Below are positions 4,493 through 45,611 of a stretch of 64,000 nt of DNA, piece after piece. Position 1 is the stretch's first letter, and each line of letters begins with the position of its first letter. Location: positions 1 through 64,000 of the IMG/VR virus record IMGVR_UViG_3300035241_000016; one strand, 5' to 3'. Source of the stretch: a virus (lineage: Duplodnaviria > Heunggongvirae > Uroviricota > Caudoviricetes). Under the pieces are notes generated by a model. That model was not told where the DNA came from and made no database searches. It saw only the letters and a program-made list of their open reading frames with translations. A program made the position numbers and the translations under genes.

Positions 4493-5002
4493 TCACAGAA
4501 GTGCTCCGCCTGGAGGCGCCACAGCGACATTCATCACCGCTCCCCCCTCCTGCGTGGCTCGCCTAGCCAGCGCGGCACCCTTCGCGATCACCGCGGTTCT
4601 ACCGTGTTGTAGGCACCCCAAGGCCAACGTGGCAACCGCTGCAGGTCCGCCACGGTGGATGGTGTCGGCTACGTCGCGGAGCGCGGCCTCTTCGGTGGCG
4701 TACTCTCCAATGACATTGCCCGTTTGCAGCTCCATTAGTTCATAGGGGCTCGCCCCGCCGACGGCGAGCGGCAGGCCTGGGACGACATCCTCAAGTGGCA
4801 CCTGCCCAGGCATTCGCACAGCCTTTGACCACGGCATGAATGTCACGAGCAAAGCGACATCGTGGGCACGGGCTATCTCCATCAACTGCCTAACGTCATG
4901 GTCCTCTGCCGGGTCAAGGCCAACCATCGCCAACGTCCGAGCAATGTCCGCATCGTTTATTTCACGACGCTTCGTACTCCAGAGCGGGTCATTCGACCTC
5001 AT
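4493..5002 (-). CDS. hypothetical protein
   Basis: 169 aa, overlaps the start region of the upstream gene; moderately protein-like. Confidence 0.35.
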   Translation of the reverse strand: MRSNDPLWSTKRREINDADIARTLAMVGLDPAEDHDVRQLMEIARAHDVALLVTFMPWSKAVRMPGQVPLEDVVPGLPLAVGGASPYELMELQTGNVIGEYATEEAALRDVADTIHRGGPAAVATLALGCLQHGRTAVIAKGAALARRATQEGGAVMNVAVAPPGGALL

Positions 5003-5777
5003 GCTCCTGCCTCCTACTGCGCAACAGGTTCCACGTCGACAGCCTTAAGGCGGCCAGGCAGATGGCCTCGGCGGCAGTTGCAGCAGTGACGTGGGCCACG
5101 GGTTCAGCGCCGTGCGCCACGATGCACTCCCAGCGATATTCGGGCAGTGACGACTCCAAGGTGTACGTCGCCACCTTGACCTGGAACCCACCAGCCACCA
5201 TGTGCTCCACCACCTGCCAGGCAGCCGCCATATCGCTGGAGTACTTTTTCAGCCAATGGCCACACTGGCCATGTGCCCACGTACCGGCACAGCGGCACAC
5301 TGGGCGGCCATTTGAGTAGCCCACGGCGCAGCCCAACATCTTCTCCGCCACCAGCGCGTCCAACTCCGGGCCAGCCTTCATGCTCACGGACGAGGCCACG
5401 GGAATACGCCCGGCGCCGCCGTCGTGGCGCTGCAGGGCCGTCAGGCCTTTGCCGGTGATGACGAACACGGGCTTCTGGGCCTTGCGGGTCTGGCCGTGGC
5501 CGACGGGCACGTCCACCGAACGCGGCGGGAGCTCGCGGATGAGGCCATCCTCCTTCATGCGCTTGAGCACAAAGAAGGTGGTGCTGCCGTCTAGTTCAGA
5601 CAGGGGGTGCGCCGCCTGCAGTTGGTCGATGATCTCGATGCCCGAAAGCGCGGTCCGCGGCCGGGCCAGCACACGCAGAATGGTCCACGACGGGTCACCG
5701 TTGCGGCGGAAGATGCGCTTAAGCTCGGGCTCGGGCACCTCCTCGGCGCGCACGTCCTCGAGATGCGCCTGATTCAT
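4989..5777 (-). CDS. PadR-like winged-HTH fused to phage ABA-sandwich-like domain (paralog 1 of 3)
   Basis: Start re-placed at MNQAHLED (listed ORF has a junk N-terminus). TILRVLARPRTALSGIEIIDQL...FFVLKRMKEDGLIRE is a PadR-type wHTH. C-terminal KAGPELDALVAEKMLG...AAAWQVVEHM...AICLAALRL is shared with 9342..9740 and 50276..50746. Confidence 0.55.
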   Translation of the reverse strand: MNQAHLEDVRAEEVPEPELKRIFRRNGDPSWTILRVLARPRTALSGIEIIDQLQAAHPLSELDGSTTFFVLKRMKEDGLIRELPPRSVDVPVGHGQTRKAQKPVFVITGKGLTALQRHDGGAGRIPVASSVSMKAGPELDALVAEKMLGCAVGYSNGRPVCRCAGTWAHGQCGHWLKKYSSDMAAAWQVVEHMVAGGFQVKVATYTLESSLPEYRWECIVAHGAEPVAHVTAATAAEAICLAALRLSTWNLLRSRRQEHEVE

Positions 5778-5988: not shown

Positions 5989-7313
5989 CGCCCGTATCCA
6001 TAGCTAGTGGTGGTCGCTGCCTGCGGGCGCAGCTTATGCCCGCCCATCAAGCCGTAGCGCAGGGCATCGACGGCGTGGTCTTCGCCTTCCGTGTTCAGGT
6101 CCTCCACACGGTGTAGGTCGTGGACCTGCGCCGGCAAGGTGCGGATCAGGTTCACGCACGTGTCGAACACCTGCAGCACCGGTTCCTCTGACAGCGCCTG
6201 ATGCACCCGCTGCCAGCCGGCGAGGCGGTCGTTGTTCGCCGGCACCAGGTACACTCCGCCGGCCTGGTAGGCCTGCGCGATTGACGTGCCATTCGGCTGC
6301 GTGTTCCACATCGAGGGGTCGCCATACGAGACGGCGATACGCTCGTTGCCCGACAGTCCCTGAATGGTCATGGCCTGCTCGGTGTCGCGCAGGCCGGTCT
6401 CGTACAGCTCACGGTACACGAACACCTGCCCCTCGGGCGATCGCGCCAGCCACAGGCAGCACATCGGGGCGAAGTGCCCGAAGTCCACTGCCCGCCAGCG
6501 CAGCCACTCCCGCGGGATGGCGAACGGCCGGCACACGTGGATATCGCGGCGCCACTCTGGAAAGTACTGCCCGGCGAAGACGTCCCAGTCGCCGTCCAGC
6601 ATGGCCCGGCGCTCATGATCGGGCAGCATCTGCAGGCGCGCGCGATAGCCGGGGTCGGCCGCCTCGCCGGCCGGGTTGTCGTCGATCTTGGCGAAATGGA
6701 AGCAGCGGTCGACCGGCACGCCGGCTCCATTGGTGATACCCTTGCCGCGGTCATCCAAGACCGTCCAGGGTTCGCAATCGAAGGTGCCGTGGTTGACGAA
6801 CCGTTGACGCACCCAGGCGTGCCCGATGCCACCCGGGTTGAAGGTGGAGCGGGTGTAGGGCTCCAGCTCGGCCACGCCGCTGCGGTTCTGCATCAGCAGG
6901 TAGGTGTACTGGCTCTCGCTGAACTCCTCGAGCTGGTCGAAACCCATGAACTGGTACTCGTGGCCCTGGTAGGCGAACTTGGATTCCTCGTGCTGGCAGT
7001 GCCGCAGCAGCAGCCGGCCGCCGCTGGGGAAGGTCCACACGTGCTCGTCGCCCTTCCAGGTGGCGCCCAGGCCCGGCAGCCACTGCCAGGCGCGATCGAG
7101 CAGCTCCGAGAGGCGTGGGAAGTCGCGCCGGAAGATGACCCCCCGGTAGCGCGGATGATGGCTGTAGCGCGTTGCCTCCATCAGGAGGCCCAGGCTCTTG
7201 CCGCCGAACTTGGCCCCGCCAAAGCCGCTCTCGTAGGCGGGACATTGGTGCCAGGCCTCCTGCTTGGGCTGCGGCCGGTACACCAGCTGCGGCTTCTCGG
7301 CGACGGCGGCCAT
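5985..7313 (-). CDS. terL: terminase large subunit
   Basis: Walker A GGAKFGGKS, DGDWD, C-terminal nuclease motif EDHAVDALRY; Terminase_6-like. Start placed at MAAVAEKPQLVY (TAATG overlap) rather than the listed 7412. Confidence 0.85.
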   Translation of the reverse strand: MAAVAEKPQLVYRPQPKQEAWHQCPAYESGFGGAKFGGKSLGLLMEATRYSHHPRYRGVIFRRDFPRLSELLDRAWQWLPGLGATWKGDEHVWTFPSGGRLLLRHCQHEESKFAYQGHEYQFMGFDQLEEFSESQYTYLLMQNRSGVAELEPYTRSTFNPGGIGHAWVRQRFVNHGTFDCEPWTVLDDRGKGITNGAGVPVDRCFHFAKIDDNPAGEAADPGYRARLQMLPDHERRAMLDGDWDVFAGQYFPEWRRDIHVCRPFAIPREWLRWRAVDFGHFAPMCCLWLARSPEGQVFVYRELYETGLRDTEQAMTIQGLSGNERIAVSYGDPSMWNTQPNGTSIAQAYQAGGVYLVPANNDRLAGWQRVHQALSEEPVLQVFDTCVNLIRTLPAQVHDLHRVEDLNTEGEDHAVDALRYGLMGGHKLRPQAATTTSYGYGR

Positions 7314-9341: not shown

Positions 9342-9740
9342 CTACGCCGGCACCTCGGCACCCACGGCCTTCAGGGCAGCCAAGCAAATGGCAAGCGGCA
9401 CCGTGGGAGCCACGCAACTGTCCTTCGGGTCGCCCGTGAAGTTGACCAGCGCGCCGAGGCCATCCTTGAACGGACGACGCGCCATCTCCCACCACCTGTA
9501 ATGGTTCGTCGCCATGTGCTCCACCACCTGCCACGCCGCCGCGATGTCGGTGCTGTACGCAGGAACGTCGCGACAGTAGTCCGACCAGCGTGGAAAGTCG
9601 GGGCGACATTCCTCGTGTTGGCTGTAATAGCCCAGCGGGTCCAACGTCGCCTTGACCACGCCGTTCACGCCGACCTTGCGCCACACAACGCCCATCACCT
9701 TCTCGGCCACCAGCGCGTCCAGTTCCCGGCCTGCGGTCAT
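9342..9740 (-). CDS. phage ABA-sandwich-like domain protein (paralog 2 of 3)
   Basis: MTAGRELDALVAEKVMGVVWRK...DIAAAWQVVEHM...LAICLAALKAVG. Listed ORF (to 10184) has a low-complexity false extension. Confidence 0.6.
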   Translation of the reverse strand: MTAGRELDALVAEKVMGVVWRKVGVNGVVKATLDPLGYYSQHEECRPDFPRWSDYCRDVPAYSTDIAAAWQVVEHMATNHYRWWEMARRPFKDGLGALVNFTGDPKDSCVAPTVPLAICLAALKAVGAEVPA

Positions 9741-9778
9741 CGTGTCGAAATCTAGGGTTGGCGTGTGGTGCGCCGCCG

Positions 9779-10330
9779 TCACTTCTTCTTCCGTTCGGGC
9801 AGGTAGATGGTGACGCCGGGCCCGTTCAGATCGAGCTGCTTTTTCTCGGTCCACTGGCCCAGTTCCTTTGCGGCCTGCTCCTGCAGCGCGCGTACCTCGC
9901 GGGGGATGATCGGATCCACTTCGTATTCGGTGACGGTCTGGGCGTTCGGCCCCATGCCGATCACCTTCAACGTCTTCACCACCAGGCCTTGGTCGCCGCC
10001 GGGTAACTCCCGCAGTTCCGGGTCTGCAGCACGAGCCGCCAAGACCTTTAGATAGCGCTCCTGCAGGTCGTCCAGGATCCTGACGCGCTTGTGTCGCTGG
10101 GCGATGGCCAGATGGACGATGCTCCGCTCCATCTCCTCGAGGATGGCTGCCTTCTTCGCCTTGAAGTCCGGGTGGAGTTTCCACGTCGCCAGTGTGCGCC
10201 GGTTAACGCCACACTCGGCCGCGATGTCCTCATCACTAAGCCGGTCTTCGGCAAGCAGTTGGGCGGCCCTCAGACGTTCCTCTGTCCACTCGAATGCCGT
10301 GGAGTTTTGTGATCCGTGGCCACCGCTCAT
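9779..10330 (-). CDS. terS: terminase small subunit candidate (HTH)
   Basis: Start at MSGGHGS preceded by AAGGAGAGAAGGA. N-terminal HTH WTEERLRAAQLLAEDRLSDEDIAAECGVNRRTLATWKLHPDFKAK typical of TerS; ~183 aa with basic C-terminus. Confidence 0.55.
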   Translation of the reverse strand: MSGGHGSQNSTAFEWTEERLRAAQLLAEDRLSDEDIAAECGVNRRTLATWKLHPDFKAKKAAILEEMERSIVHLAIAQRHKRVRILDDLQERYLKVLAARAADPELRELPGGDQGLVVKTLKVIGMGPNAQTVTEYEVDPIIPREVRALQEQAAKELGQWTEKKQLDLNGPGVTIYLPERKKK

Positions 10331-14132: not shown

Positions 14133-14665
14133 GCCGCCAACATCTCCGCCGTGATGGCTTCGCCGCGTTCCCAGCGATTGGCGAAGTCCGCCCAACCAGC
14201 CTCGAGCGTCCAAGAAGCATCACGCTGCAGGCGCGTGAGTAGGTCCGCCAACGTACTCGGCACCATCGCGACCTCGTCCCAGCACCAGTTGCCCACCCAG
14301 GTCGAGTAGCCTTTGATGGCGAAGGCACCGCAGCGGTCGAACACCACCCGGAAGTCCTGCCGGTCGATGTGGCCAGGTACGCCGTCGGGCTCGTCATCGC
14401 TATCGCTTACGGGTCCGTGCAATTCCAAACACGGCTCCAGGTGTTCGCTGGCCGTGTAGACCTTCAGCGCTCGGATCCAGCCGTCGGGGAAGCCGTTGCG
14501 CGGGTTATTGCTCGCCAGGGCCAGGCACGGGTAGGGGTAGGGAGAGGCACTCACGTGGACGAGTGAGGTTCTCAAGAGTTTGGTACGGCCACCACCATTC
14601 GGCGCAGTGGCCTTCGCTGGATTTGCGACGCGACCCGGAGTCACCGTTCGGCTCCCTCCAGGCAC
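14129..14665 (-). CDS. hypothetical protein abutting the tRNA 3' end (true start probably internal)
   Basis: C-terminal 120 aa is protein-like (...DRQDFRVVFDRCGAFAIKGYSTWVGNWCWDEVAMVPSTLADLLTRL...). Listed start lies 7 nt from the tRNA, so is unlikely. Confidence 0.35.
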   Translation of the reverse strand: MPGGSRTVTPGRVANPAKATAPNGGGRTKLLRTSLVHVSASPYPYPCLALASNNPRNGFPDGWIRALKVYTASEHLEPCLELHGPVSDSDDEPDGVPGHIDRQDFRVVFDRCGAFAIKGYSTWVGNWCWDEVAMVPSTLADLLTRLQRDASWTLEAGWADFANRWERGEAITAEMLAA

Positions 14666-14672
14666 TGTGCAG

Positions 14673-14744
14673 CTGGCGAGGCAGGATTCGAACCTGCAAC
14701 CGTGCGCTTAACAGGCGCCTGCTCCACCGTTGAGCTACTCGCCA
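14673..14744 (-). tRNA. tRNA-Asn (anticodon GTT)
   Basis: Reverse complement reads TGGCGAGTAGCTCAACGGTGGAGCAGGCGCCTGTTAAGCGCACGGTTGCAGGTTCGAATCCTGCCTCGCCAG. 7-bp acceptor stem, D stem GCTC/GAGC, anticodon loop CTGTTAA (U33, GTT, A37), T arm GCAGG-TTCGAAT-CCTGC; no encoded CCA. Confidence 0.8.
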
Positions 14745-14900
14745 AAACGTGATCCTGGGACACGCCGAGGGTCAGCAGCCGCTCCATGCCCAGCACGATC
14801 GCCTGCAGCGCCTCCCGCTCGGCCTCAGCTCTGTGCATCGCCGCCCGGAACTGCGGCATGGTGTCGGCGATGAGCGCCAGGAGCGTCGGGGTCACGCCTT

Positions 14901-15485
14901 TTACCACGCCGTCGGCGGCGAACCCGGCTGATGGGCATTCGCTGGCCGCTCCGTATCGAGCACCGATCCGGTGCTGTAGGACGAATAGTCACCGATGATT
15001 CGAAACGTCCGCACTACCGCGAAGTCGAAGAGATAGACCTCCGGATCGGCTAGCCCGTATAGCCGCAGGTCAATGGTTCCCGCCGCCGATTTCGCGATGG
15101 CTTCTGGCGTGCAATCATCGGCGCCATGTGTGGAGATGTACTGCACCACCGCATGACGGGCGATGCTCATGACGACGTCCTCCGCGTGGTGGAGGGTCTG
15201 GTACAGCTGCGCAATGTTGGTGATGGAGTAGCTGACGGATCCGGAGAACGTGATGGTGACGCTATCCCGGTTCGTGATGGTCTGGCGCCCCAGACTCGCC
15301 GTCCTCTTCCGAACGCTCTGCACATACACGACATCGATGAATGGCAGCTTCCAATGTGGTCCGGCTTCCAGGACTTTCACGTACTTGCCAAGGCGCACAC
15401 GAACCGCCTGCTGCCAAGGACTGACGACGATCCAGATCACCAGACTGCCGACAAATCGCTGGATGATGTTCAGGATTTCGTTCAT
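14901..15485 (-). CDS. SPFH/band-7 (stomatin/prohibitin-like) domain membrane protein
   Basis: N-terminal TM FVGSLVIWIVV followed by SPWQQAVRVRLGKYVKVLEAGPHWKLPFIDVVYVQSVRKRT...TNRDSVTITF, the classic SPFH core. Locally lower GC. Confidence 0.7.
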   Translation of the reverse strand: MNEILNIIQRFVGSLVIWIVVSPWQQAVRVRLGKYVKVLEAGPHWKLPFIDVVYVQSVRKRTASLGRQTITNRDSVTITFSGSVSYSITNIAQLYQTLHHAEDVVMSIARHAVVQYISTHGADDCTPEAIAKSAAGTIDLRLYGLADPEVYLFDFAVVRTFRIIGDYSSYSTGSVLDTERPANAHQPGSPPTAW

Positions 15486-16958: not shown

Positions 16959-17174
16959 TTACTCGGCATTCGCCACCTCGAACGTCGGCTCAGCCGTCGA
17001 TGTCTTGCATGGCTTGCCGAAGATGAGGTGCGTGGGATCATCGTTCGTGCCCCTGATCACCCGCACCACACGTATGGGGAGCAGTTCACCCTCAGCTTCG
17101 GCAACCTGACACTTCGAGTCCTTAGCGACAGGGTTGCCGATGATAAGCCTGTGGGGCTGGTCGGTAGTCATCAT
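16959..17174 (-). CDS. hypothetical small protein
   Basis: 71 aa; ATGATGA coupling with the upstream gene. Confidence 0.4.
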   Translation of the reverse strand: MMTTDQPHRLIIGNPVAKDSKCQVAEAEGELLPIRVVRVIRGTNDDPTHLIFGKPCKTSTAEPTFEVANAE

Positions 17175-17389
17175 GTGTTCCGCACGTTGGCGGACCGCAG
17201 CAGCAGACCGTCCAAGTACTCGAGCTCGTCGTACATAGCAGCCAACTGCCAGGCGTTAATTTCGCCGTCCTCAAACCAGTGAATAATCGTGTTTATTCGC
17301 CGGTTGCTTCGGCCCTCAAGAGACTCGTCCTCTGGCAAGTCCTCCCAGGCAACATGGCCGAGCGGCACTAAACGCTTGTCCTTAGCCAT
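17171..17389 (-). CDS. hypothetical small acidic protein
   Basis: 72 aa; GGAGTAAGG SD; protein-like composition. Confidence 0.5.
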   Translation of the reverse strand: MAKDKRLVPLGHVAWEDLPEDESLEGRSNRRINTIIHWFEDGEINAWQLAAMYDELEYLDGLLLRSANVRNT

Positions 17390-18134
17390 GCGCCTTACTC
17401 CGTTCTCGCGCAGTTAAGCGGAGGGATGGCAGGCTCAGGACCCCAAAGGCATCCGCTCCCATCCAGTCGCGAGCAAAGCCTTCGACCCGTGCCCCATTCA
17501 GCATCGTGCTGTTGCGATGGTGGTAATGACCATGCACGATGAGCTTTGGACTGACGGCATCAACCACTCGACGGACCTGGCGCCGGTTGCCTAGCGACTC
17601 AGGCCACCTATCTTTGTCGCCTGCCGTTGACGGCCCAACGACGCCGGCGGCGCCATCCGGTGCGTCATGACACACCAGCACATCGGTAGGGCCGCCTTCG
17701 CTGGCCTTCCTAACCTCGTCGTCAGTGATGGTTTCCTCGGACCACCACGACTGGCCTTCGACGCGGTTCGGCTTGTCAACGCTGTAGGCCCCGCCGAGAG
17801 CAAGAAATCGCACGCCGTCACAGGCCCACCGATAACCGCGGGGGAGATACGTCACACGCGGCCGAATTTCGACCGCTCGGCTGCAGTCGTACCGCGTTCG
17901 CAGCAACGCGTGATTCTCGTGATTGCCGTCTACCCAAAAGAGGAAGAGGCCGTACCGCTCCATCAATTCGCTAGCGGCCTTCAGGTAGTAACACCCATCG
18001 TCAAGGTGCTCCCAGTAGCCAAAGTCACCAAGCTGGAGAATGGCCGTGCATTTCTGCTCGTCAGCGACCTGGGCAAGGAACCGGAGCCAGTCCGCTTGGC
18101 CGTGCGTGTCGCCGGCCAGAAGCACTTTCGTCAT
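17382..18134 (-). CDS. Ser/Thr protein phosphatase (calcineurin-like metallophosphoesterase)
   Basis: Motifs LLAGDTHGQ, GDFGYW, VDGNHENH, GHYHH. Start placed at MTKVLLAGD. Confidence 0.75.
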   Translation of the reverse strand: MTKVLLAGDTHGQADWLRFLAQVADEQKCTAILQLGDFGYWEHLDDGCYYLKAASELMERYGLFLFWVDGNHENHALLRTRYDCSRAVEIRPRVTYLPRGYRWACDGVRFLALGGAYSVDKPNRVEGQSWWSEETITDDEVRKASEGGPTDVLVCHDAPDGAAGVVGPSTAGDKDRWPESLGNRRQVRRVVDAVSPKLIVHGHYHHRNSTMLNGARVEGFARDWMGADAFGVLSLPSLRLTARERSKAHG

Positions 18135-19976: not shown

Positions 19977-20465
19977 ATGCTTCCTCGCGGCGCCGACCTC
20001 TCGGGAAAGCGATTCGGCCGACTGGTAGTCATCGAAGAGGCCCCTCGTCCGAGCCCGCGTCATCGTCTGTGGATATGTCGTTGCGACTGCGGCAACACGG
20101 CCGTCGTTCGACAGGACCACTTGGGGAAGAAGATTCAGGCGTGCGGTTGCCTCCAGCGAGAACGGACATCGGCGGCCAATCGCACACACGGTATGAGCAA
20201 GACTCCCGAGTTCCACACGTGGGAGCGCATCAAGAATCGTTGCCACAATCCGCGCACGCCGGACCATCCCGACTGGGGCGGGCGGGGAATCTTCGTCTGC
20301 GAAGAATGGCGCCATGACTTCACGGCCTTTTATCGCGACATGGGGCCACGCCCAAGCCCGCAGCACTCCATCGACCGCATCGACAACGACGGTCCATACT
20401 CGCCTGAGAATTGCCGATGGGCCACGGCGAAGGAACAAGCCAACAACCGACGCCACGCCGCCTAG
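19977..20465 (+). CDS. HNH_3-like (degenerate, IDRID) DNA-binding/homing-endonuclease-like protein, paralog 1 of 3
   Basis: N-terminal Zn motif [12 protein letters not shown]...[13 protein letters not shown]...CGC. C-terminal [12 protein letters not shown]...DMGPRP...[27 protein letters not shown] resembles HNH_3 but with His replaced by Arg. Opposite strand to all neighbours. Confidence 0.6.
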
Positions 20466-20796: not shown

Positions 20797-22434
20797 CTAC
20801 GCTTCCCTCCGCCAAATGATAGGACCGGCCGCGGCCTGCTGCTCCAGCCGGAGGCGCTCGCCTGGCGTGCGGATTTCGAACTCCCAGCGCAGGCTGCGGC
20901 CATCAGTGACGATGTGGTCGACCAGCGTGCGTACCACTTCGCGCCGCTGTTCGAAGGTGGCGGAGGCGGCCCGATCGCGGATGATGCCCACCACGCTGGC
21001 AGCGCTGGCGATCTGCAGTTCCGAGAGGCGGCGGTGGCCCAACTTCTCCACCAACTCGGCGCGGCGGGCCAGCCAGCGGTCTTCCTCCAACTGGACCTTC
21101 CGGAACTCGGCCTCGGTGACGGCCAGGGTGTACAGCTCCGGCAGCTTGCGCCGGCCGTCCAGAACGACGTCGCGCTCTCGCGCGAGGCGCGGCAGGGCGC
21201 GCGTGTCGATCTCCTCGAGCTCGCGCTCGAGCCCCTCGTAGTAGGCAGCGCCCTTCTCCCGCAGCCGTGAGAGCTCGGCCAGCACCAGCTCGGGCTGCTC
21301 GAGCAGCTCCCGCACCTTTGCCCACACCGGCTCGTCCAGCCGGTAGCTGGCCACGCTCGTACTGGTGCACCTGGGCCCCGGGTGATAGACGCTGCGTAGC
21401 TTGCCGTTACAGCGGTAGAAGGTGTAGGTCACGCCCTTCTTCTTCCCGTCGCGGCTGGCGCCGTGCACAGCACGGCCGCAGACCGAGCAGCGGAGAATGC
21501 CGCTCAGCAGGAACTCGTGCTTGCTGTTGCGCGCCGCGAAGCGCTTGTTGTCGGCGATGCGACGCTGGACTTCGTCCCACAGCTCATCAGTGATGAGTCG
21601 CGGGCAGCCGAGCCGGATCCAATCCTCCTGCGGCCGCAGGCGCTCAGTCTTGCGTGGCTTGCCTCCGACCTTCTTCCGATAGCCCGGCTCGGCGGCGCGG
21701 TAGCGGCGCTGCACCAACTCGCCCTTCAGGGCTGGATTGCGGAGCATGCGGGCGAGCGTGGCCGTGCGCCACTTTCCGCCCCTGGTAGTGGCCACGCCGC
21801 TGTCGATCAGCCAGTAGACGATGGACTGCAAACTGTGGCCAGCGAGCACGCGCTCGACGATGCTGCGCATGGTGGCGGCCTCGGTCTCGCGCAGAACGTA
21901 CTTGCGCTCCTGCTTGTCGTAGGCCATCCAGAAGAACTCGCCTGGGTTGACGATGCGTCCGGCCCGGGCATGCTCGAGGCGGCCGCGGGCGGTGCGCTCG
22001 GCGATCTGCATGCGCTCCACCTGAGCCAACACACCCTGCAGGGCATCGAAGGCAAATCCCATCGGCGTGTCGGTGTTGGCGAAGGGCTGCCCGTTGGGGC
22101 CGGCCAGCACGACGCCGGCGGCGCGCAGTTCCTTGTCGAGGAAGAGCTTGTCGGCCAGGTCCCGGCTGATGCGATCAGGATCGACGCAGCGCACCTGGTC
22201 CACGCCGCGGGCGCGGACCAGCTCACGCAGCCGGGACAGGGCTGGCCGCTCGAGCAGCGCACCGGACCAGCCGGGATCCTCGAACACGGGGGCGTCCATG
22301 TCCTCATCGCGGACCAGCTCGTCGTCAGGGCCCAGGCCGGCCAGAAGGATGGCGCGCTGCACCTCGACGGTCTGGCCGTCCGTGGAAACCCGAGCATAGA
22401 GCGCCACCCGCATGCCGTTAGTCCGGCTCACCAT
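20797..22434 (-). CDS. large serine recombinase (integrase)
   Basis: MRVALYARVSTDGQ catalytic N-terminus, recombinase domain, Cys-containing zinc-ribbon region and long coiled-coil C-terminus; 545 aa. Confidence 0.85.
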   Translation of the reverse strand: MVSRTNGMRVALYARVSTDGQTVEVQRAILLAGLGPDDELVRDEDMDAPVFEDPGWSGALLERPALSRLRELVRARGVDQVRCVDPDRISRDLADKLFLDKELRAAGVVLAGPNGQPFANTDTPMGFAFDALQGVLAQVERMQIAERTARGRLEHARAGRIVNPGEFFWMAYDKQERKYVLRETEAATMRSIVERVLAGHSLQSIVYWLIDSGVATTRGGKWRTATLARMLRNPALKGELVQRRYRAAEPGYRKKVGGKPRKTERLRPQEDWIRLGCPRLITDELWDEVQRRIADNKRFAARNSKHEFLLSGILRCSVCGRAVHGASRDGKKKGVTYTFYRCNGKLRSVYHPGPRCTSTSVASYRLDEPVWAKVRELLEQPELVLAELSRLREKGAAYYEGLERELEEIDTRALPRLARERDVVLDGRRKLPELYTLAVTEAEFRKVQLEEDRWLARRAELVEKLGHRRLSELQIASAASVVGIIRDRAASATFEQRREVVRTLVDHIVTDGRSLRWEFEIRTPGERLRLEQQAAAGPIIWRREA

Positions 22435-22572
22435 CGCGAGAGTCAGTATCCGTCAACAGCGGCGCGAGCAGCCAGGCCCACATACGGTCCCAGCGCTCCT
22501 GCTTCTCACCATCATCGACCACCCGCACGCCACAGGTAACCGGAATGGCGGCGGGATCCTCGGGGGGCGAGA

Positions 22573-22953
22573 TCATAGTGTTTCCAGCAGTGAGCCGTAA
22601 TAGCCGAGCCGCTGCTCATCAGAAGGCACGTCTGCAATCGCTTCGGCACTGCGGCCTCGTCCGTATTCATAGGGAACGCGGCTGTTGTCGAAGTCCAGAT
22701 CGCGGGGCGGATCGACGCCAAGTGCTCGCATCCCTTGCGCAAGCCCGCGTGCGATCCGTTTGGCCGCATCCTTCCTCTGTTTTGCCAACCGCTCCTGGTC
22801 TTGGGCTAGCAGAAAATCCTGGACGGCTCCACGTAGCTCGCGCTGCAAGCCCTCGGCTAGATGGCGCCGAAGGTCGAGGTCTGGCGGAAACGCATTCATG
22901 TCTGTCGCACGGCCTTCGCGCATCAACAGCTCCCCGGCGCTCAGTTTGGGCAC
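22573..22953 (-). CDS. hypothetical protein (small-gene cassette, GTG start)
   Basis: MPKLSAGELLMREG...; junction GAGGGTAAAGCGTAAGTG with the upstream gene. Confidence 0.45.
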   Translation of the reverse strand: MPKLSAGELLMREGRATDMNAFPPDLDLRRHLAEGLQRELRGAVQDFLLAQDQERLAKQRKDAAKRIARGLAQGMRALGVDPPRDLDFDNSRVPYEYGRGRSAEAIADVPSDEQRLGYYGSLLETL

Positions 22954-23298
22954 TTACGCTTTACCCTCGGAGCGTGAGCAGTCAGGCAAACGTTTGAGAC
23001 TGGCCATCAACGCCCCCAGCGTGTCACCGCCGACGAGCTCGTACTCCTTGCCACCGTCAGCGGCTATCAAGTGCATACTCAGGCCGATGCCACCGGTCCA
23101 AAACTGCGGGCTGCCATCGAACGTATAGCCCTTCCGCTTAACGAGCGAAACGAGGCGATTCTCGGACGACTCGGAGATCCAGCCGTGCGGTCGGACGGTC
23201 GGCACCAGCGACTCCGACCGGCCATCGACGTAGCTGTAGAAGAACTTTCCGTCTTCCCACTTGATGGTGGGCAGGTGATTGAAGGCGTGATCTGCCAT
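22954..23298 (-). CDS. hypothetical protein (small-gene cassette)
   Basis: MADHAFNHLPTIKWEDGKFFYSYVDGR...; ends ...SEGKA. Confidence 0.5.
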   Translation of the reverse strand: MADHAFNHLPTIKWEDGKFFYSYVDGRSESLVPTVRPHGWISESSENRLVSLVKRKGYTFDGSPQFWTGGIGLSMHLIAADGGKEYELVGGDTLGALMASLKRLPDCSRSEGKA

Positions 23299-23478
23299 CT
23301 ACGCCTTACCCCCGGCCTGCGGGTCATCGTCGCCAGCAATGAAGCAGGGGCGGCACATGTTCCTCGGATTGACGGCGACTAGCTCTCCGCCGATGGACAT
23401 GACGCTATCGTTGAAAACGATCGGCTGACCTCGCCGCCGTTTCCCGCAGCGTGAGCAGACAAAGCGGTTACTCGGCAT
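23299..23478 (-). CDS. zinc-ribbon small protein (cassette)
   Basis: MPSNRFVCSRCGKRRRG...CRPCF; ends ...AGGKA. Start placed inside the GGGGGTAAGGCGAATG junction. Confidence 0.5.
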   Translation of the reverse strand: MPSNRFVCSRCGKRRRGQPIVFNDSVMSIGGELVAVNPRNMCRPCFIAGDDDPQAGGKA

Positions 23479-23797
23479 TCGCCTTACCCCCGTCCTCGGC
23501 ATACGGAACCACCGTCGTCTCGCTCGACAAGACGTACACCCAAAGGTTGCAACGATTGCAAAGGAAGGCGTCGATCTTGGCTCCGAACTGCGTCACAACC
23601 GGATGCTTGCAGAGGCGATCTCGAACCCGCTCGCTGTCGGAGCGCAGCAGATAGTTCACGTCCCGCAGCGCCATTTGGATCGGGTCACAAGTGCCGTCCC
23701 GGTACTTCCCATCAACGGCATCCAGCCGGACGATCTCCAGCACGTCTGTGACCTTCTCCCAGGCCACCGCGTTGATGCTGTAATCGTGGTCGCTCAA
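23468..23797 (-). CDS. hypothetical protein (cassette, TTG start)
   Basis: MSDHDYSINAVAWEKV...; ends ...DGGKANAE. Confidence 0.5.
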   Translation of the reverse strand: MSDHDYSINAVAWEKVTDVLEIVRLDAVDGKYRDGTCDPIQMALRDVNYLLRSDSERVRDRLCKHPVVTQFGAKIDAFLCNRCNLWVYVLSSETTVVPYAEDGGKANAE

Positions 23798-23816
23798 TGG
23801 TTCGCCTTACCCCCGC

Positions 23817-24128
23817 TCACCGGACTATCTGCGACTCGACGCCGCGCAGGGCCACTTGGACCCGCTTACTCAGTTCCTCCCACGCAGCTGCATAGCCTTC
23901 CTCAGCACCGAGGTACTTAGCCGTAACGTCCGCGTCGGCTAACGCTGCGTCGATCACCGCCTGCCGTGACCGTACTTCGGCCAGCAGGGTTAGCCCGATT
24001 CTGGCAAGGTCATGAACCTCCCTCGCTGCGGCCTGCAGAATCGGCACGGGATCATCACCGGGACACCAGCCATAGGAGCGTTGTTCGCTGGCATGCAGAT
24101 GTAGCTCGTAGTTAGCAAGATCACCCAT
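23817..24128 (-). CDS. hypothetical protein (cassette)
   Basis: MGDLANYELHLHASEQRSYGW...; start inside GGGGGTAAGGCGAATGGGTGA. Confidence 0.5.
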   Translation of the reverse strand: MGDLANYELHLHASEQRSYGWCPGDDPVPILQAAAREVHDLARIGLTLLAEVRSRQAVIDAALADADVTAKYLGAEEGYAAAWEELSKRVQVALRGVESQIVR

Positions 24129-24273
24129 TCGCCTTACCCCCGATTAGCGAAAGGCGCAGAACAGCCCGGTAATGCCCATCCTCGCCGTTTATCGTCCAGA
24201 CAAGCAGCCCTCGGCCAATCTTTGATGCCACCAACACCCGACGACCAAACCGCATGACAAACAAGTTCTTCAT
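24121..24273 (-). CDS. small protein ending ...LIGGKANG (cassette)
   Basis: MKNLFVMRFGRRVLVASKIGRGLLVWTINGEDGHYRAVLRLSLIGGKANG; ATGA overlap with the upstream small gene. Confidence 0.45.
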   Translation of the reverse strand: MKNLFVMRFGRRVLVASKIGRGLLVWTINGEDGHYRAVLRLSLIGGKANG

Positions 24274-24431
24274 GCCGACGTTCCCCCGTTTACCGAACGA
24301 TGCTTGTCCAGCGCCCTCTGGACTTCGGCGACCCACTCCGGATCGTTCTCGGCCAGCTCACGCCCTAGCTCCTCCATCATTTCGGCGTAGCCTGGTATGT
24401 CCATCAGGCTTGGCCGCTTCGAATCAGCCAT
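24270..24431 (-). CDS. unlisted 53-aa protein ending ...VNGGTSA (cassette)
   Basis: MADSKRPSLMDIPGYAEMMEELGRELAENDPEWVAEVQRALDKHRSVNGGTSA; start immediately after GGAGGGAGTCGCTAG; not in the ORF track (<60 aa). Confidence 0.4.
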   Translation of the reverse strand: MADSKRPSLMDIPGYAEMMEELGRELAENDPEWVAEVQRALDKHRSVNGGTSA

Positions 24432-24698
24432 CTAGCGACTCCCTCCATAAGGCGCATACGACGACCGGAACGTCATGCGGCTCGCCATCTGAGCAAGCAC
24501 CCCCTTATCCCGGCTTTGATCGCCGGCGATGATGGCCATGACCACATCAAAGCGCCGTGGTGCGCCGGTCCATAATTCGCGGTACAGCGCCTCGTTGCGA
24601 ACCTTCCAGTCGCAGTACTCTGGCGCGTTCAATCGTGGCGTGATGTCGTGGTGTCGCCGGATGGCCAGCTTGGCGATCTTGGCCTGCTTGCCGGTCAT
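24432..24698 (-). CDS. hypothetical protein ending ...YGGSR (cassette)
   Basis: MTGKQAKIAKLAIRRHHDITPRLNAPEYCDWKVRNEALYRELW... Confidence 0.5.
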   Translation of the reverse strand: MTGKQAKIAKLAIRRHHDITPRLNAPEYCDWKVRNEALYRELWTGAPRRFDVVMAIIAGDQSRDKGVLAQMASRMTFRSSYAPYGGSR

Positions 24699-24892
24699 TC
24701 CGACGACCCTCGGTTTCGCGAACGTCCGGAAATCGACACCAGGGGCACGGGCTCGTCGTCGGAGGGGTCGTACCCGCAGCGGGCGCAGCCGCTAGGGCCT
24801 TCGCGATTCCATTTCTTGCACTCGGGACACTGCCACAAATAGACTCGGCCGAGCCGCTCATCAACCGTCCGCCAAACGGTTTGGGGTATCAC
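24695..24892 (-). CDS. zinc-ribbon protein (GTG start)
   Basis: IPQTVWRTVDERLGRVYLWQCPECKKW...CARCG; GTGA overlap. Confidence 0.5.
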   Translation of the reverse strand: MIPQTVWRTVDERLGRVYLWQCPECKKWNREGPSGCARCGYDPSDDEPVPLVSISGRSRNRGSSE

Positions 24893-25077
24893 CGCGACCC
24901 TCCGAGTAGCAGCGGCTCTACAGAGAACAGCGGCGGCAACGGTGGGCAGCCGCGATCAATCCAGTCCCGAACCGTGTTGCCGATGGTCGCCTCAAAGTGC
25001 TCGTCGCAGCAGGTCGGGCAGGACACAACACCCATCCCTGGCTCCAGCTTTCCACCGTGGTGACACCACCGCGCCAT
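24889..25077 (-). CDS. Cys-rich small protein ending ...LLGGSR
   Basis: MARWCHHGGKLEPGMGVVSCPTCCDEHF...; start after GGAGGGAGTCGTTAG. Confidence 0.45.
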   Translation of the reverse strand: MARWCHHGGKLEPGMGVVSCPTCCDEHFEATIGNTVRDWIDRGCPPLPPLFSVEPLLLGGSR

Positions 25078-25560
25078 CTAACGACTCCCTCCAGACGCGG
25101 TTTTCGACTTCCAGTCCTCGCCGTACTGCTCTCGAAACCGCTCGGCTCGCGCCGCGCCGTAGTCCATCCCCATGCAGGTTTCGCAGCATTGAATCTCCGC
25201 CAACGTCTCGCGGTGCCAGGAGTCAACGTGCTGGATAACGGCGTGCTCCATCCCGCCTCCGCTTAGGCCCTGGCCGCCGGCGATTCCCTGTACCGAACGC
25301 CTGAGGGTGTCCTCTTGGCCTTGCTCGTAGGCTTGGCGCTGCTTCTCCTGGCAATCCGCGATCAACTCCCTGTTCTTGGCTCGCTCGGCATCCAGAGTTG
25401 CCAGGAGGTCCAAGCAGCTGCACTCCGCGCAAATAAGGCGCTTGTCGTCAGTGCCTCTGGTGTTGACACAGACGTGGCGCAGGGTGAAGGCACGGACCAG
25501 CTCGACCTGTTCGATCGACAGTGGCCTGGGCTCATATGCCCCGGCTTTCATCTGTTTCAT
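25078..25560 (-). CDS. hypothetical protein ending ...SGGSR; paralog of 52190..52450
   Basis: Contains ADCQEKQRQAYEQGQEDTLRR (cf. DDECQEKQRWAYEQGQEDLRR at 52190..52450) and CxxC pairs. Confidence 0.5.
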   Translation of the reverse strand: MKQMKAGAYEPRPLSIEQVELVRAFTLRHVCVNTRGTDDKRLICAECSCLDLLATLDAERAKNRELIADCQEKQRQAYEQGQEDTLRRSVQGIAGGQGLSGGGMEHAVIQHVDSWHRETLAEIQCCETCMGMDYGAARAERFREQYGEDWKSKTASGGSR

Positions 25561-25573
25561 TCAGCACTCGCCA

Positions 25574-26554
25574 TCAGGCCGCCACCGCCGGGAATTCTTC
25601 CCGCACCCGGCCGTCTAGTTCGGGGTGCTTGGCGGGCCGTAGACCACTAGATTGCTTGTAGAAGAAGGGGATCCCCCAGATGTGGCAGTCGTGGCTAATC
25701 TGCCGCGCCCACTCCTCGCTCATCGGCCTGTAGCCAGGGCCGGACTCCCCACCGACGACTACCCAGTCGAGACCACCGAGCTCCCCTGGGTTGAGGAAAC
25801 TTCTCATGAACCGTCCGAAGTTCAGCGGCCCCAGGAGCGGCTCCCCGCTCACCCAACGCACCGCGGCCCTGGTCTGCGCGACGTAGTTGAAGCGCCACAG
25901 GTAGTCCTGGGACTCGATCGTCGTGCCGCACCAGACGTGGGGCAGCACCGGCGAAGCCAGCGCCGTCAGGGTCGCCTGGTAGTGCTCCGGCAACCGCTCG
26001 GCAATGTTGTTGACGCCGGTGTCGAGCATTCCCGGCAGCAGCAGATCGATGGCCGCGCGCTTCAGCCTCTGAGTGTCGAGCCCGTTGATGTAGTCGCGCA
26101 TCCGTTTCGGGCGCTTCGTGAGCAGTTGGAACGTGTGGTGCGGCGCCAGCGCCATCATGCCGAAGACCTTGTCGAGCCAAGCATCCGGAACCCAATCGCC
26201 GAACAGATCCGTCATTGAGCAGACGAAGATGCGCCGCGGCCGCGTCCAGTGCAGCGGCTGCAGGAGTGTCGGCTCATGCAACTGCAGCGGCTCCTTACCG
26301 GCGTAGACCGCGCCAGCCAGGCTGACCGTCTGCAGCCCCTCGGTGGTGTATGGGTGCCCGCCGTGGTTCACGTGCAGCGTCGAGGCGTAGCAGTTGTCGC
26401 ACGCTGGCGAGACCTTCTCACACCCCCACAGGACCATGTTTCGCGTGACGACTTTCCCGTCACCCGCGGTGGTCGTGTACTCAGTGCCCGGCCGCGCTGA
26501 GCGGATCGGGTTCAGCGTGGCATCGGTCCACGCAATGCCGCTTCTATCGCCCAT
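25574..26554 (-). CDS. phage Gp37/Gp68 family protein (DUF5131)
   Basis: MGDRSGIAWTDATLNP...WGCEKVSPACDNCYA...WTRPRRIFVCSMTDLFGDWVPDAWLDKVFGMMALAPHHTFQLLTKRPKRM matches the family signature. Confidence 0.75.
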   Translation of the reverse strand: MGDRSGIAWTDATLNPIRSARPGTEYTTTAGDGKVVTRNMVLWGCEKVSPACDNCYASTLHVNHGGHPYTTEGLQTVSLAGAVYAGKEPLQLHEPTLLQPLHWTRPRRIFVCSMTDLFGDWVPDAWLDKVFGMMALAPHHTFQLLTKRPKRMRDYINGLDTQRLKRAAIDLLLPGMLDTGVNNIAERLPEHYQATLTALASPVLPHVWCGTTIESQDYLWRFNYVAQTRAAVRWVSGEPLLGPLNFGRFMRSFLNPGELGGLDWVVVGGESGPGYRPMSEEWARQISHDCHIWGIPFFYKQSSGLRPAKHPELDGRVREEFPAVAA

Positions 26555-42266: not shown

Positions 42267-43559
42267 CTAGCCGGCCTGTGCCGGCTGCTGGTCATGCTCA
42301 TCAATGGCACCGCCTGACGCGAGTTGGACGATCTCGCCGAATGTGAGCTCATCGGCGTTTCGGGGCACGACGCCCTGGTTGTGGGCCATCTGCTTCTGGA
42401 AGGTGCTGTACGCCTGGAAGTGCTCCGGGATGCCGCGGTCGCGATACGGCACCTTGCGCCAGGTGGCGCCGGCCGGGGAGGAGGCGCCCGGAGCGGCCCG
42501 ATCCGTACCGGCGGACGTACCATTTTCCTGGCCTTCCGACTGTGCGCTCGATGCCGGTGTTGTCGTCGCTACGTCGGTTTGGGGCGCAGTAGCTCCCGCT
42601 TGCGCGTTGTTCTTTACGGACGCCTCCTCTCCCGGCTCAGTACCCGTGAGTTCAGTGGCCTCGACGTCGATCGCGTCGTCGGGCGGAATATCCTCCGAAG
42701 GTGGCGGCAGAGTCGGGCCGCTGGGCGCCGCGATCTGTGGCACCTGCGCAGCGCCTGGCATCAGCACGAAGGCTTCCTCGAGGCGGAGGACAGGGACTCG
42801 AGATGCATGCGGGCCGAACACTGCCGATCGACCCTTCTTCTCTTTAATGGAAAGCGTTGCGGCGATGGGCCGGCCATCCTGCTGGCGCGAGAGGTACTCG
42901 GCCTGGATAACGACGTTCGTCCAGTGCTGCGCTGCGTAATTCCCGTGACACACGACGTCCCACACGCCGCGAAAGGGAATCCCTCGAATGCCGACCTTGA
43001 GCCGGGTCACACGCGCACACGCATCCGCATCGCTTCGGTCGCAGCTGCAGGGTCGAGGTATCCAGGGTGGTTGCGTCTTGTCGTCGCGTGCGAGAGGGTT
43101 AGGAACCATAGCGATCTGTCCATCGCAGTACTTCTGCATGGCGTGGCTCCCGTTGTAGGCCTCATAGCGAGGACCAACCAGCGTGTCGGGAAGGGGAAAT
43201 AGCAGGACCGGCAAGACGCTGGCCGTCAGAACGGTCTGCCAGGCGGGTCCATCCGGCGAGTCCCAGGGAGTGATGGTTGCCGGATCGCCGTGGACGCGGG
43301 CTAGCTCTTCGAGGTCATCCCGCTCAAGCGCGGTGGCGCGGAAGCGGTCGAGGGCTTCTCCGAACCCCATGACGGGCTTGCCGTTCCGACCGATGAGCGG
43401 CTTGCCACTGCGTAGTACGGGTCGCTTCGGGCCACCAAGGCGCAGCCGACCAACAACATCAAGCTTCTGTTCGGTGCCCACAATCTGCGGTTGTGGCCGG
43501 TCGGAAGGGCTGATCTCCGCAGCCTGACGTACGGCTACTGCGGTTGACGGTGAACTCAT
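42267..43559 (-). CDS. hypothetical protein with acidic Pro/Thr/Ser-rich C-terminal region (possible recombination/nuclease-type early protein)
   Basis: 430 aa from MSSPSTAVAV (ATGA overlap with HNH paralog 2); Cys cluster CSCDRSDADAC; acidic low-complexity tail. Confidence 0.45.
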   Translation of the reverse strand: MSSPSTAVAVRQAAEISPSDRPQPQIVGTEQKLDVVGRLRLGGPKRPVLRSGKPLIGRNGKPVMGFGEALDRFRATALERDDLEELARVHGDPATITPWDSPDGPAWQTVLTASVLPVLLFPLPDTLVGPRYEAYNGSHAMQKYCDGQIAMVPNPLARDDKTQPPWIPRPCSCDRSDADACARVTRLKVGIRGIPFRGVWDVVCHGNYAAQHWTNVVIQAEYLSRQQDGRPIAATLSIKEKKGRSAVFGPHASRVPVLRLEEAFVLMPGAAQVPQIAAPSGPTLPPPSEDIPPDDAIDVEATELTGTEPGEEASVKNNAQAGATAPQTDVATTTPASSAQSEGQENGTSAGTDRAAPGASSPAGATWRKVPYRDRGIPEHFQAYSTFQKQMAHNQGVVPRNADELTFGEIVQLASGGAIDEHDQQPAQAG

Positions 43560-44011
43560 GCTGCATGCCTCTTGAGCCAGTTCTTGCGCTGGCCAAATGG
43601 AATCAATGGGGTAGTGAGCGCTCGCTCGACAGGCCAGCCATTGTTTAGACGGAACTGGAGCGAGCGCTTCGTGAGCCCCTTTTCCCGGGCCCACACGATG
43701 AGCGGCTTTGTCTCGCCACCGAACGTAATCAATCGGTTCGAGCGCAGATTCTGCTGCTGCTGCCGAGCTGTCGCCCAACGGCAGTTGATGCGGTCGATGC
43801 TGTACCCGGGCCCAGGTCGAGGCCCCATGTCCGTCAGGAACGCCTCGAAGGAGTCGCGCCAGCGATCGCATACGGTGATGCCCCTACCGCCATACCTGGA
43901 GTAGCTCCGATCGCTAGGGTTCTGACACCGCCGTTTGAGGGAATCCCATGTGCGGTATTCGGAGAGGTAGGTGGCCTTGATGCCGATCGGTGTTGTCCGT
44001 GGCTGCCTCAC
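43556..44011 (-). CDS. HNH_3-like (degenerate) protein, paralog 2 of 3, with C-terminal HTH extension
   Basis: [15 protein letters not shown]...DMGPRPGPGYSIDRIN; lacks the N-terminal Zn finger, has a C-terminal LIVWAREKGLTKRSLQFRLNNGWPVERAL HTH. Confidence 0.55.
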   Translation of the reverse strand: MRQPRTTPIGIKATYLSEYRTWDSLKRRCQNPSDRSYSRYGGRGITVCDRWRDSFEAFLTDMGPRPGPGYSIDRINCRWATARQQQQNLRSNRLITFGGETKPLIVWAREKGLTKRSLQFRLNNGWPVERALTTPLIPFGQRKNWLKRHAA

Positions 44012-45565: not shown

Positions 45566-45611
45566 GTGGTAGCCTCTCCTTGGTTCGTCGTTTCTTCTGG
45601 GTGCGCGGACT

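Follow-up and report, generated by a model that had tools for sequence, protein, structure and literature searches.

The 64,000-nucleotide stretch analysed here (positions 1 to 64,000 of the IMG/VR virus record IMGVR_UViG_3300035241_000016, a caudoviricete; hereafter the window) carries on its minus strand a cassette of 12 small genes in close succession (25560 to 22418), in which ten consecutive junctions are drawn from a small set of near-identical sequences. We favour, with reasonable confidence, the reading that these repeated sequences are extended start-associated initiation modules in a coupled early operon, held under nucleotide-level constraint and spread by recombination at gene junctions. 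The genes, of 50 to 160 codons each (Table 1), lie downstream of a DUF5131 gene and upstream of a serine integrase gene. Between consecutive genes, stop and start are separated by anything from an 11-nt overlap to a 19-nt gap, and the last gene overlaps the integrase gene by 17 nt. A preliminary description of this region had recognised the small-gene cassette but counted about ten genes; we count 12, and for each of them the codon-model score of its own frame beats all other frames. The same junction modules recur in a second small-gene cluster near 52 kb, directly upstream of a Mom-like gene.

We distinguish three families by their spacers, i.e., TAAGGCG(A) in F1, (A)GTCGNTAG in F2 and AACGTCGGC in F3, and a 35-nt hairpin-capable element, U, present in six copies. 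All copies are on the minus strand, at or a few bases from the positions first proposed. Five copies of F1 had been reported, but the 17-mer CGGGGGTAAGGCGAATG is exact only twice. Its 12-nt core, GGGGGTAAGGCG, has four exact copies (23302, 23480, 23803 and 24130), which share the same sharp 5' boundary, plus two variants. One variant, the fifth of the reported copies, has two mismatches in the core (GAGGGTAAAGCG, 22957-22968) and counts as F1 because of its position only; the other, a sixth copy that had been missed, has the core CGGAGTAAGGCG (17391-17402) 1 nt before the ATG of 17171-17389. The other motifs were found as first described: F2 consists of two exact 20-mers with a clear variant, GGGGGGAGTCGGTAGGTG, at 52814-52831 and a weaker relative at 24889-24904 (the same nucleotide motif with a 2-nt difference); the two F3 sites (24270-24290 and 52190-52210) agree at all but 2 of 21 positions, and both match the 18-mer GGRGGAACGTCGGCATGA; and exact copies of the 15-mer CCCCCGATTAGCGAA lie at 24137-24151 and 52827-52841.

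The motifs have a fixed register relative to the start codons. Each of the 14 junction copies lies on the coding strand and stops 0-5 nt short of a start codon, with a G-run 8-10 nt upstream of that codon; 1-5 nt separate the F1 core from the start, and F2, F3 and U extend up to it. K-mers were compared without bias across all 117 start regions of the window. The sequence GTAAGGCG occurs five times in the 64 kb when both strands are counted, always directly upstream of a minus-strand start (one of them at 17390-17402), and all three window occurrences of the 8-mer GGGAGTCG are at starts. An independent repeat finder run on the 20-31 kb region returned F1 and F2 as the top direct-repeat families. 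Among the 29 start regions with a G-run resembling a Shine-Dalgarno (SD) sequence, nine pairs share at least 11 nt, whereas matched windows around G-runs away from starts gave a mean of 0.67 pairs and none of 500 draws reached nine. Chance convergence of G-rich SD sequences, which had been put forward as the finding that would undo the observation, is thus excluded.

The predicted pairing with the anti-SD sequence is also stronger at these sites, averaging -11.05 kcal/mol over the 14 junctions, whereas the remaining 103 genes average -6.87 (p 1.8e-5), computed with a generic 16S 3' tail that may not be that of the host. ATG is the start codon at 10 of the 14 junctions and at 53 of the 103 genes elsewhere, a comparison of small numbers in which the control starts come from a simple gene caller. 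Given the start register, the G-run distance and the anti-SD pairing, we conclude that translation is initiated at the motif junctions, which lie within the 3' ends of the genes before them. An SD sequence complementary to the 16S tail precedes each start, and stop and start overlap or are a few nucleotides apart, as in coupling through an embedded SD; judged on sequence, the layout looks typical of translational coupling. The initial suggestion of a coupling element that constrains C-termini was therefore essentially right as regards coupling, with the SD inside the motif and stop and start abutting; the tails are another matter, taken up below. By itself the G-run pairs at -9.5 kcal/mol, and extending it to the full F1 gives -10.0, so that the spacer core contributes hardly anything to the pairing.

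Other roles that short repeats at gene junctions could have received no support. Promoter-like and terminator-like sites at the junctions are at chance level, with no excess, and no inverted repeats coincide with the motif copies; we thus rejected a promoter or terminator role and a palindromic operator. A plus-strand antisense partner for F1 was sought in the window and only chance-level matches with two mismatches were found. Outside the window, the F1 16-mer has nine unrelated single matches in viral contigs (43-53% GC), the F1 17-mer has 28 scattered single matches, with no clusters, in 185,579 species genomes, and the F2 20-mer has zero matches in viral contigs. The exact F1 17-mer is not a feature of bacteria in general.

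The spacer core is found in a second phage contig, L018, located only through a protein 45-54% identical to the product of 22954-23298. This contig (5.3 kb, 21 genes, 60% G+C) has no alignable DNA with the window and, apart from that one common family, no protein similarity to it. Three of its consecutive junctions read gtcaGTTAAGCGaATG, gtggGTTAGGCGaATG and gtggGTAAAGCGcaGTG, and GTWARGCG occurs exactly three times on its two strands, each time at one of these three consecutive starts (shuffle mean 0.33; none of 200 shuffles reaches three). What is conserved between the window and L018 is the spacer core and not the G-run, and the L018 sites pair weakly with the anti-SD. Where the window has AAG (Lys), L018 has TAG or TAA, which ends the upstream gene; the "KA" in the GGKA tails thus comes from reading through the module.

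These tails, which the preliminary description had correctly listed as GGKA(N..), GGSR and NGGTSA, occur on unrelated proteins because the modules lie inside the last codons of the preceding genes. Gly-Gly is found within the last seven residues of 14 genes, where about 4.7 would be expected, and motif junctions account for 9 of these genes. The motifs identically reuse rare codons (GGG 17%, GGT 14%, GGA 9%, AGT 8%), and the probability of the codons given the peptide ranges from 7e-3 to 2e-5 per motif copy. The copies are found in coding, frame-shifted (U at 52816-52850, which holds a TAA) and non-coding (F1 at 23799-23815 and U at 52964-52998) contexts. An exhaustive HMMER search gave two true homologs of 22954-23298, both in arrays of tiny genes. 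The conserved domain of all three proteins ends in KRLPD, after which the tails diverge (CSRSEGKA, RNASEAGA and AV), so for this gene the proposed check of tail conservation across homologs came out negative. The constraint is at the nucleotide and not the peptide level. Since copies are also non-coding or frame-shifted, reuse rare codons, and the tail is not kept in homologs, the Gly-Gly tails are a by-product of the module. The motifs thereby explain shared Gly-Gly-x-x tails that could otherwise be mistaken for protein motifs. They also help to choose the true starts of tiny orphans (ATG 24273 over GTG 24336; ATG 23478 over ATG 23502).

In six junctions an upstream module, TTCGCYAAWY, is joined to the spacer, and in this element U it combines with the F1, F2 and F3 spacers and with a fourth type. 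The pattern TCGSYAAWYSGRGG has five matches in the window against 0.05 expected, a pattern that was derived after seeing the junctions. When folded, the conserved GCYAAWYGGGG forms the loop, with the SD run in and next to it, and the upstream arm to which the variable spacer pairs differs from copy to copy. In the 35-nt alignment, pairing fills 75% of the stem cells (62% in shuffles, of which 9 of 500 reach the observed value), the covariation score is 0.44 against 0.20 (7 of 500), and every slid register does worse. A covariance model trained on five copies recovered the sixth, which was not in its training set (24697-24731; 18.2 bits, E 0.006), with the next match at E 0.21. Folded alone, the six copies adopt the same hairpin with z-scores from -0.9 to -3.1. 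Taken together, the folding predictions make the hairpin probable, not established. Applied to relatives, the covariance model gave one marginal match, inside a coding region and not at a start, i.e., a chance match.

The gene bodies tell a different story from the junctions. All-against-all BLASTP found no paralogy among the cassette proteins, none of these or of the 52-kb cluster proteins matched a Pfam or PHROG family, and for two cassette proteins the sole match among 5.8 billion proteins was the protein itself. By these comparisons the gene bodies are unrelated orphans. The only match is a 37-residue segment common to 25078-25560 and 52190-52450 (21 of 37 residues identical, E 2e-9), the shared peptide already noticed, and only this segment plus its junction is duplicated between the cassette and the second cluster. 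We thus rejected a tandemly duplicated paralogous family, and the modular duplication of tiny genes together with their signals finds no support as far as the genes are concerned: it is the junction modules that have been reused and recombined, rather than the genes. Right after the shared segment, inside 25078-25560, lies a decayed ("fossil") junction of the U+F3 type. It is degenerate and followed by no start codon, and its start-serving counterpart at 52192-52226 is intact. The segment and its junction have therefore been copied together at least once, and the unused junction has decayed. The copied segment and the mixed combinations of modules point to spread by recombination at gene ends, and we consider that the motif copies probably spread in this way. 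The 160-residue protein of 25078-25560 looks like a fusion of two ancestral genes, with an N-terminal half related to 52190-52450, and 3' of the fossil junction there is a GGAGG followed by an in-frame ATG at 25251-25249 (MEHAV…).

In the model that we favour, the repeated junction sequences would be extended translation-initiation modules belonging to the downstream gene, each made of a G-rich SD run and a conserved spacer (F1, F2 or F3), with six adding the upstream module that would form the hairpin. The cassette would be read as one early transcript with translational coupling, and at U-type junctions the hairpin would be opened, and the SD run freed, by the ribosome that completes the upstream gene. 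Selection on the initiation region, where a phage or host factor may bind as proposed for the start-associated sequences (SAS) of Cluster K mycobacteriophages, would most likely maintain the identity beyond the SD. Recombination at gene junctions would have spread the copies when orphan genes were inserted or swapped.

Several observations weigh against this model. The hairpin test involves five to six related sequences and a structure chosen after inspection, and the covariation of U is thin because three copies share the F3-type 3' arm by descent. Four F1 copies outside U have no common RNA fold (z from +0.9 to -1.2), hence the conservation of the F1 spacer is not due to the hairpin. The comparative support comes from L018 alone, with three copies of which two differ from the window core at one position, and the distant relatives L011, L012, L016 and L017 lack a repeated motif. 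The gene starts come from the simple codon model of this analysis and some control starts may be wrong. Finally, short exact repeats with unrelated flanks are also expected from recent junction-targeted recombination or gene conversion, with no need for a function beyond the SD.

This last point is the core of the main rival, in which recombination left the repeats as linkers or scars that do nothing more than an ordinary SD would. Homologous or microhomology-mediated recombination at short sequences common to gene ends would insert, swap or delete orphans, the junction being copied each time, and the repeats would persist because they are recent or homogenised by gene conversion. We give this account a minor, though appreciable, chance. 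It fits an array of unrelated orphans each flanked by direct repeats of 12-20 nt, the association of U with F1, F2, F3 or a fourth spacer, and the one coding segment clearly duplicated as a unit with its junction; moreover, the three F1-like junctions of L018 are the only ones with positive gaps in that stretch, as at insertion borders. There is also a published precedent. In mycobacteriophage Island3, the inserted orphan gp68 repeats the upstream gene in its last 18 residues and its junction, a duplication ascribed to recombination across about 50 bp (PMC3029335), and conserved gene-boundary sequences have been proposed as recombination targets (PMC3974807). As in gp67/gp68, unrelated genes here share their last codons and junction at the DNA level, and orphans appear as insertions. 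However, Island3 has one pair with some 50 bp of homology, whereas here there are 14 junctions with modules of 13-35 nt, sharp common boundaries and a core present in a divergent phage. Neutral scars should not survive as the 8-nt core does at three starts of L018 despite the lack of alignable DNA, the 5' boundary shared by the four exact F1 copies is unexpected from independent crossovers, and the junction copy that does not precede a start has decayed while the used copies are intact. Such linkers account for the origin of the repeats only, and are compatible with selection and with the model of initiation modules.

A second alternative, which we judge improbable, is that the motifs are DNA-level binding sites for a phage regulator that blocks transcription in short intergenic regions, in the manner of the stoperators of Cluster A phages, which are asymmetric 13-bp repressor-binding sites found genome-wide, including in the early-promoter operator (PMC3203893). 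The motifs are likewise asymmetric, 12-17 bp long, at gene junctions and in one orientation relative to transcription, and a helix-turn-helix (HTH) repressor candidate is encoded in the window. Against this, blocking transcription does not need the fixed distances to the start (core 1-5 nt, G-run 8-10 nt), and stoperators have no such register. The copies are few and clustered instead of genome-wide, the divergent immunity region (~46.7-46.9 kb) is free of F1, F2 and U, and the stoperator consensus GGTGGMTGTCAAG is at chance level, with five matches in the window against 3.65 expected. The lack of inverted repeats at the motifs points the same way. Very improbable, and largely refuted already, is chance convergence of G-rich SD sequences under high-GC codon usage, or selection on the GGKA, GGSR and NGGTSA tails: an in-frame GGAGG-like SD necessarily encodes Gly-Gly, such tails are enriched as seen above and GGSR is encoded by two codon sets, but the identity extends well past the G-run, the copies outside the coding frame and the homologs lacking the tail are not accounted for, and the alternative GGSR coding is a 2-nt difference within one nucleotide motif.

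The closest known case is that of the SAS, described by Pope et al. in 2011 as asymmetric repeats of 13 bp that precede start codons by 3-7 bp, all point the same way, are restricted to non-structural genes, of different families, and consist of an SD-like core with conserved positions unable to pair with rRNA (PMC3203893). Their function was still unverified in 2025, after a survey of 188 genomes (PMC12699233). The elements described here are SAS-like but outside that family. Both are short, asymmetric, multi-copy repeats in one orientation, a few nucleotides 5' of the starts of unrelated gene families, with an SD-like core plus conserved positions that do not pair with 16S rRNA, and both are rare in bacterial genomes at large. 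The copies at 17.4, 22.9-25.1 and 52.2-53.0 kb are among small early or accessory genes, and the terminase and tail regions within the window are free of copies (the window leaves out ~19 kb of the source record). In contrast to the single 13-mer of SAS, there are at least three spacer families and an upstream module here, with 2-6 copies per family against 11-19. The junctions here are zero-gap or overlapping and lie in the last codons of the upstream gene, whereas SAS mostly follow gaps above 50 bp, a trait found here only in the copy at 52964-52998 (gap of ~96 nt). The imperfect 17-bp inverted-repeat pair of the extended SAS (ESAS) is absent, the candidate hairpin of U being shorter and including the SD, and the phage lineage is unrelated to Cluster K or not placeable. 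The SAS consensus GGGATAGGAGCCC, with up to two mismatches, gave three matches in the window against 1.86 expected (26 of 100 shuffles reach three), none of them at cassette junctions; one match with two mismatches, GGGATAGGTGCCA at 1534-1546 on the plus strand, is 2 nt before the ATG of 1549-1767 (+), in a window where the overall count is at chance level. A possible counterpart to the conservation of SAS across phages is one divergent contig, L018, with the spacer core at three consecutive starts of unrelated genes. The region had been called unusual and unannotated, which is fair, but with SAS as a published analogue (PMC3203893) it is not unprecedented. SAS have been known since 2011 only in Cluster K mycobacteriophages, and an independent system would suggest that extended signals tied to starts are a recurrent strategy of phages and not peculiar to one cluster.

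Two further comparisons help to place the elements. Ordinary translational coupling involves an SD inside the upstream gene and ATGA or TAGATG junctions, and is gated by RNA structure in the RNA phage MS2 and in ribosomal-protein operons. The junctions here resemble it in the SD 8-10 nt before the start within upstream coding sequence, in stops and starts that overlap or abut, and in a hairpin (U) that a ribosome could open. However, identical sequences of 12-20 nt at many junctions of unrelated genes are neither needed nor normal in coupling, which also leaves unexplained the 8-nt non-SD spacer core in another phage. The attC sites of integrons are imperfect palindromes of 57-141 bp between cassettes, with a GTTRRRY core, recombined by the tyrosine integrase IntI. 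An attC array was rejected, given junctions of at most 19 nt, no palindromes, a GTAAGGC instead of a GTTRRRY core, and a serine integrase next to the cassette; the degenerate 7-mer GTTRRRY fits only two of the L018 copies.

A bolder extension, which we regard as speculative and rather unlikely, is that the GTWARGCG core, and perhaps the U loop GCYAAWYGGGG, is a lineage-wide non-SD signal read by a dedicated factor that switches tiny accessory genes on or off together. The factor could be, e.g., a small zinc-ribbon protein encoded in the cassette or a host protein, and the signal could double as a crossover site for the cassette exchange of accessory genes, possibly anti-defence genes. If true, this would be a translational regulon and gene-shuffling device of a kind uncharacterised in any phage, and a handle on the unexplained SAS of Cluster K.

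Table 1. Small genes, motif copies and neighbouring features of the window.
Feature	Position	Strand	Context
Cassette gene 1	25078-25560	-	
Cassette gene 2	24889-25077	-	
Cassette gene 3	24695-24892	-	
Cassette gene 4	24432-24698	-	
Cassette gene 5	24270-24431	-	
Cassette gene 6	24121-24273	-	
Cassette gene 7	23817-24128	-	
Cassette gene 8	23468-23797	-	TTG start
Cassette gene 9	23299-23478	-	
Cassette gene 10	22954-23298	-	
Cassette gene 11	22573-22953	-	
Cassette gene 12	22418-22576	-	
Second small-gene cluster	51978-52965	-	same junction modules; genes 52834-52965, 52451-52816, 52190-52450, 51978-52193
F1 CGGGGGTAAGGCGAATG	24126-24142	-	before ATG of 23817-24128; reads GGKAN upstream; 3' arm of a U element
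F1 CGGGGGTAAGGCGAACC	23799-23815	-	5 nt before TTG of 23468-23797; non-coding, past the upstream TGA stop
F1 CGGGGGTAAGGCGAATG	23476-23492	-	before ATG of 23299-23478; reads GGKAN in the upstream gene
F1 CGGGGGTAAGGCGTAG	23298-23314	-	directly followed by ATG of 22954-23298; reads GGKA*
F1 variant GAGGGTAAAGCGTAA	22954-22968	-	directly followed by GTG of 22573-22953; reads EGKA*
Sixth F1 copy, variant CGGAGTAAGGCGC	17390-17402	-	directly followed by ATG of 17171-17389; outside the cassette, beyond the integrase
F2 GGAGGGAGTCGTTAGATGGC	25073-25092	-	GGSR*, then ATG of 24889-25077
F2 GGAGGGAGTCGCTAGATGGC	24427-24446	-	GGSR*, then ATG of 24270-24431
F2-related junction CGGAGGGTCGCGGTGA	24889-24904	-	GGSR* through different codons; GTG start of 24695-24892 overlaps the stop
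Sixth U element, F3-like spacer GTCGTCGGA	24697-24731	-	flush with ATG of 24432-24698
U + F3 spacer (…TTCGGTAAACGGGGGAACGTCGGC ATGA)	24272-24306	-	before 24121-24273; reads RSVNGGTSA*
U + F1 spacer (GCGCCTTTCGCTAATCGGGGGTAAGGCGA ATG)	24126-24160	-	stem CGCCTT/AAGGCG closes the conserved loop; z -2.0
U + F3 spacer	52192-52226	-	before ATG of 51978-52193; reads HSPNGGTSA*; z -3.1
U + F2 spacer (TTCGCTAATCGGGGGGAGTCGGTAG GTG)	52816-52850	-	before 52451-52816; contains the TAA stop of the 43-aa gene 52834-52965 and is thus read in a different frame
U + fourth spacer (GAGAGATCG)	52964-52998	-	before ATG of 52834-52965; in the non-coding gap
Decayed ("fossil") U+F3 junction	25276-25299	-	inside 25078-25560, after the segment common with 52190-52450
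Tail-like genes	right end of window		genes read along the minus strand
Mom-like gene	51157-51981	-	Pfam Mom, E 1e-21
HTH repressor candidate	46901-47530	+	
Early arm			Gp3-like recombination directionality factor, DUF6745, C5 methylase, ParB, PAPS-reductase-like protein, AAA_25 helicase, DUF1064, DUF5131
DUF5131 gene	25574-26554	-	last of the early arm, cassette next
Serine integrase gene	20797-22434	-	downstream of the cassette
HerA-like ATPase, metallophosphoesterase, tRNA-Asn, small and large terminase subunits			beyond the integrase along the minus strand

The window (64.7% G+C, nearly all genes on the minus strand) is one temperate-phage-like genome, in which functions were assigned by Pfam and PHROG searches. 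Its lineage is unsampled in databases. Megablast against deposited phages gave zero nucleotide matches to the window, a tblastn search with the helicase gave essentially none, and peptide-pattern scans of viral contigs with the DUF5131 gene and the integrase, as well as a scan of viral and genome contigs with the aligned family of 22954-23298, gave no close relative. The large terminase subunit is less than 40% identical to any match, with mixed hosts, and is thus useless for host assignment. A scan of metagenomes for relatives retrieved only L010, a 36% relative. The nearest DUF5131 homologs are about 50% identical, and their contigs include the syntenic L012 (PAPS reductase, DnaB/AAA_25, resolvase, DUF5131). 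The junctions of the syntenic relatives L011 and L012-L016 are ordinary, with no repeated extended motif, and an F1-like copy in L012 is indistinguishable from noise. Junctions ending in GGTGGC(G/C)GCCTGATG (…VAA*) are found in L012 (10059-10088), L014 (~3920-3936), L016 (~6470-6488) and the window (25561-25590); the recurrence of this sequence after DUF5131 and other genes may reflect a shared junction or common high-GC codons. L010, an unrelated metagenomic element, has repeated palindromes, GTAAAGCG-N-CGCTTTAC, at 570-586, 616-632, ~2122 and ~20436, which are probably its own operator sites and of which a half-site happens to resemble an F1 variant core.

Several of the tiny orphans encode zinc-ribbon-like proteins with a CxxC…CxxC pattern (24889-25077, 24695-24892, 23299-23478 and 52834-52965, all on the minus strand), and one such CxxC orphan has a weak match to Zn_ribbon_LapB (E 1.5e-4, below the Pfam cutoff). 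The gene 51978-52193 (-) encodes a 71-aa CxxC…CxxxC protein and overlaps the start of the Mom-family gene 51157-51981. In phage Mu the corresponding place, upstream of mom, belongs to the gene for Com, a zinc-finger translational activator. A Com-like role for the product of 51978-52193 was rejected, since homology has no Pfam or PHROG support. Within this gene, 12 nt from its start (ATGACGACGGCTGTTAAGGCGAAG), lies the only copy of the F1 spacer 8-mer TAAGGCGA that is not 5' of a start (52173-52180, -), and the gene 52834-52965 begins with ATGGCCGTTAAGGTCGCG.

Other start contexts recur in the window. The sequence (CG)AACCAAGGAGA, with a canonical AAGGAG SD, is upstream of the minus-strand starts at 10330, 45565 and 54908, thus preceding the small terminase gene and two others, and (C)TGGAGGT is found in upstream coding sequence before the starts at 27530, 53584, 57531, 34477 and 53925 (-). 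A second run of small genes with ATGA overlaps, at 44000-46100 (-), has its similarity just 3' and not 5' of the start codon, most of the genes beginning with ATGAGC[AG]C[CT]CC (MS[TA]P…). An Rfam search matched solely the tRNA, the motifs belonging to no known RNA family; this tRNA-Asn (GTT) gene, at 14672-14744 (-) in the phage-like region, is overlapped by a weak-scoring predicted open reading frame (14641-14907). Within-genome paralogs do exist elsewhere in the window: 20193-20465 (+) and 43556-44011 (-) are 51% identical over 82 aa (E 8e-29), and the trio 4989-5777, 9342-9782 and 50276-50746 (-) has a common Phage_ABA_S domain.

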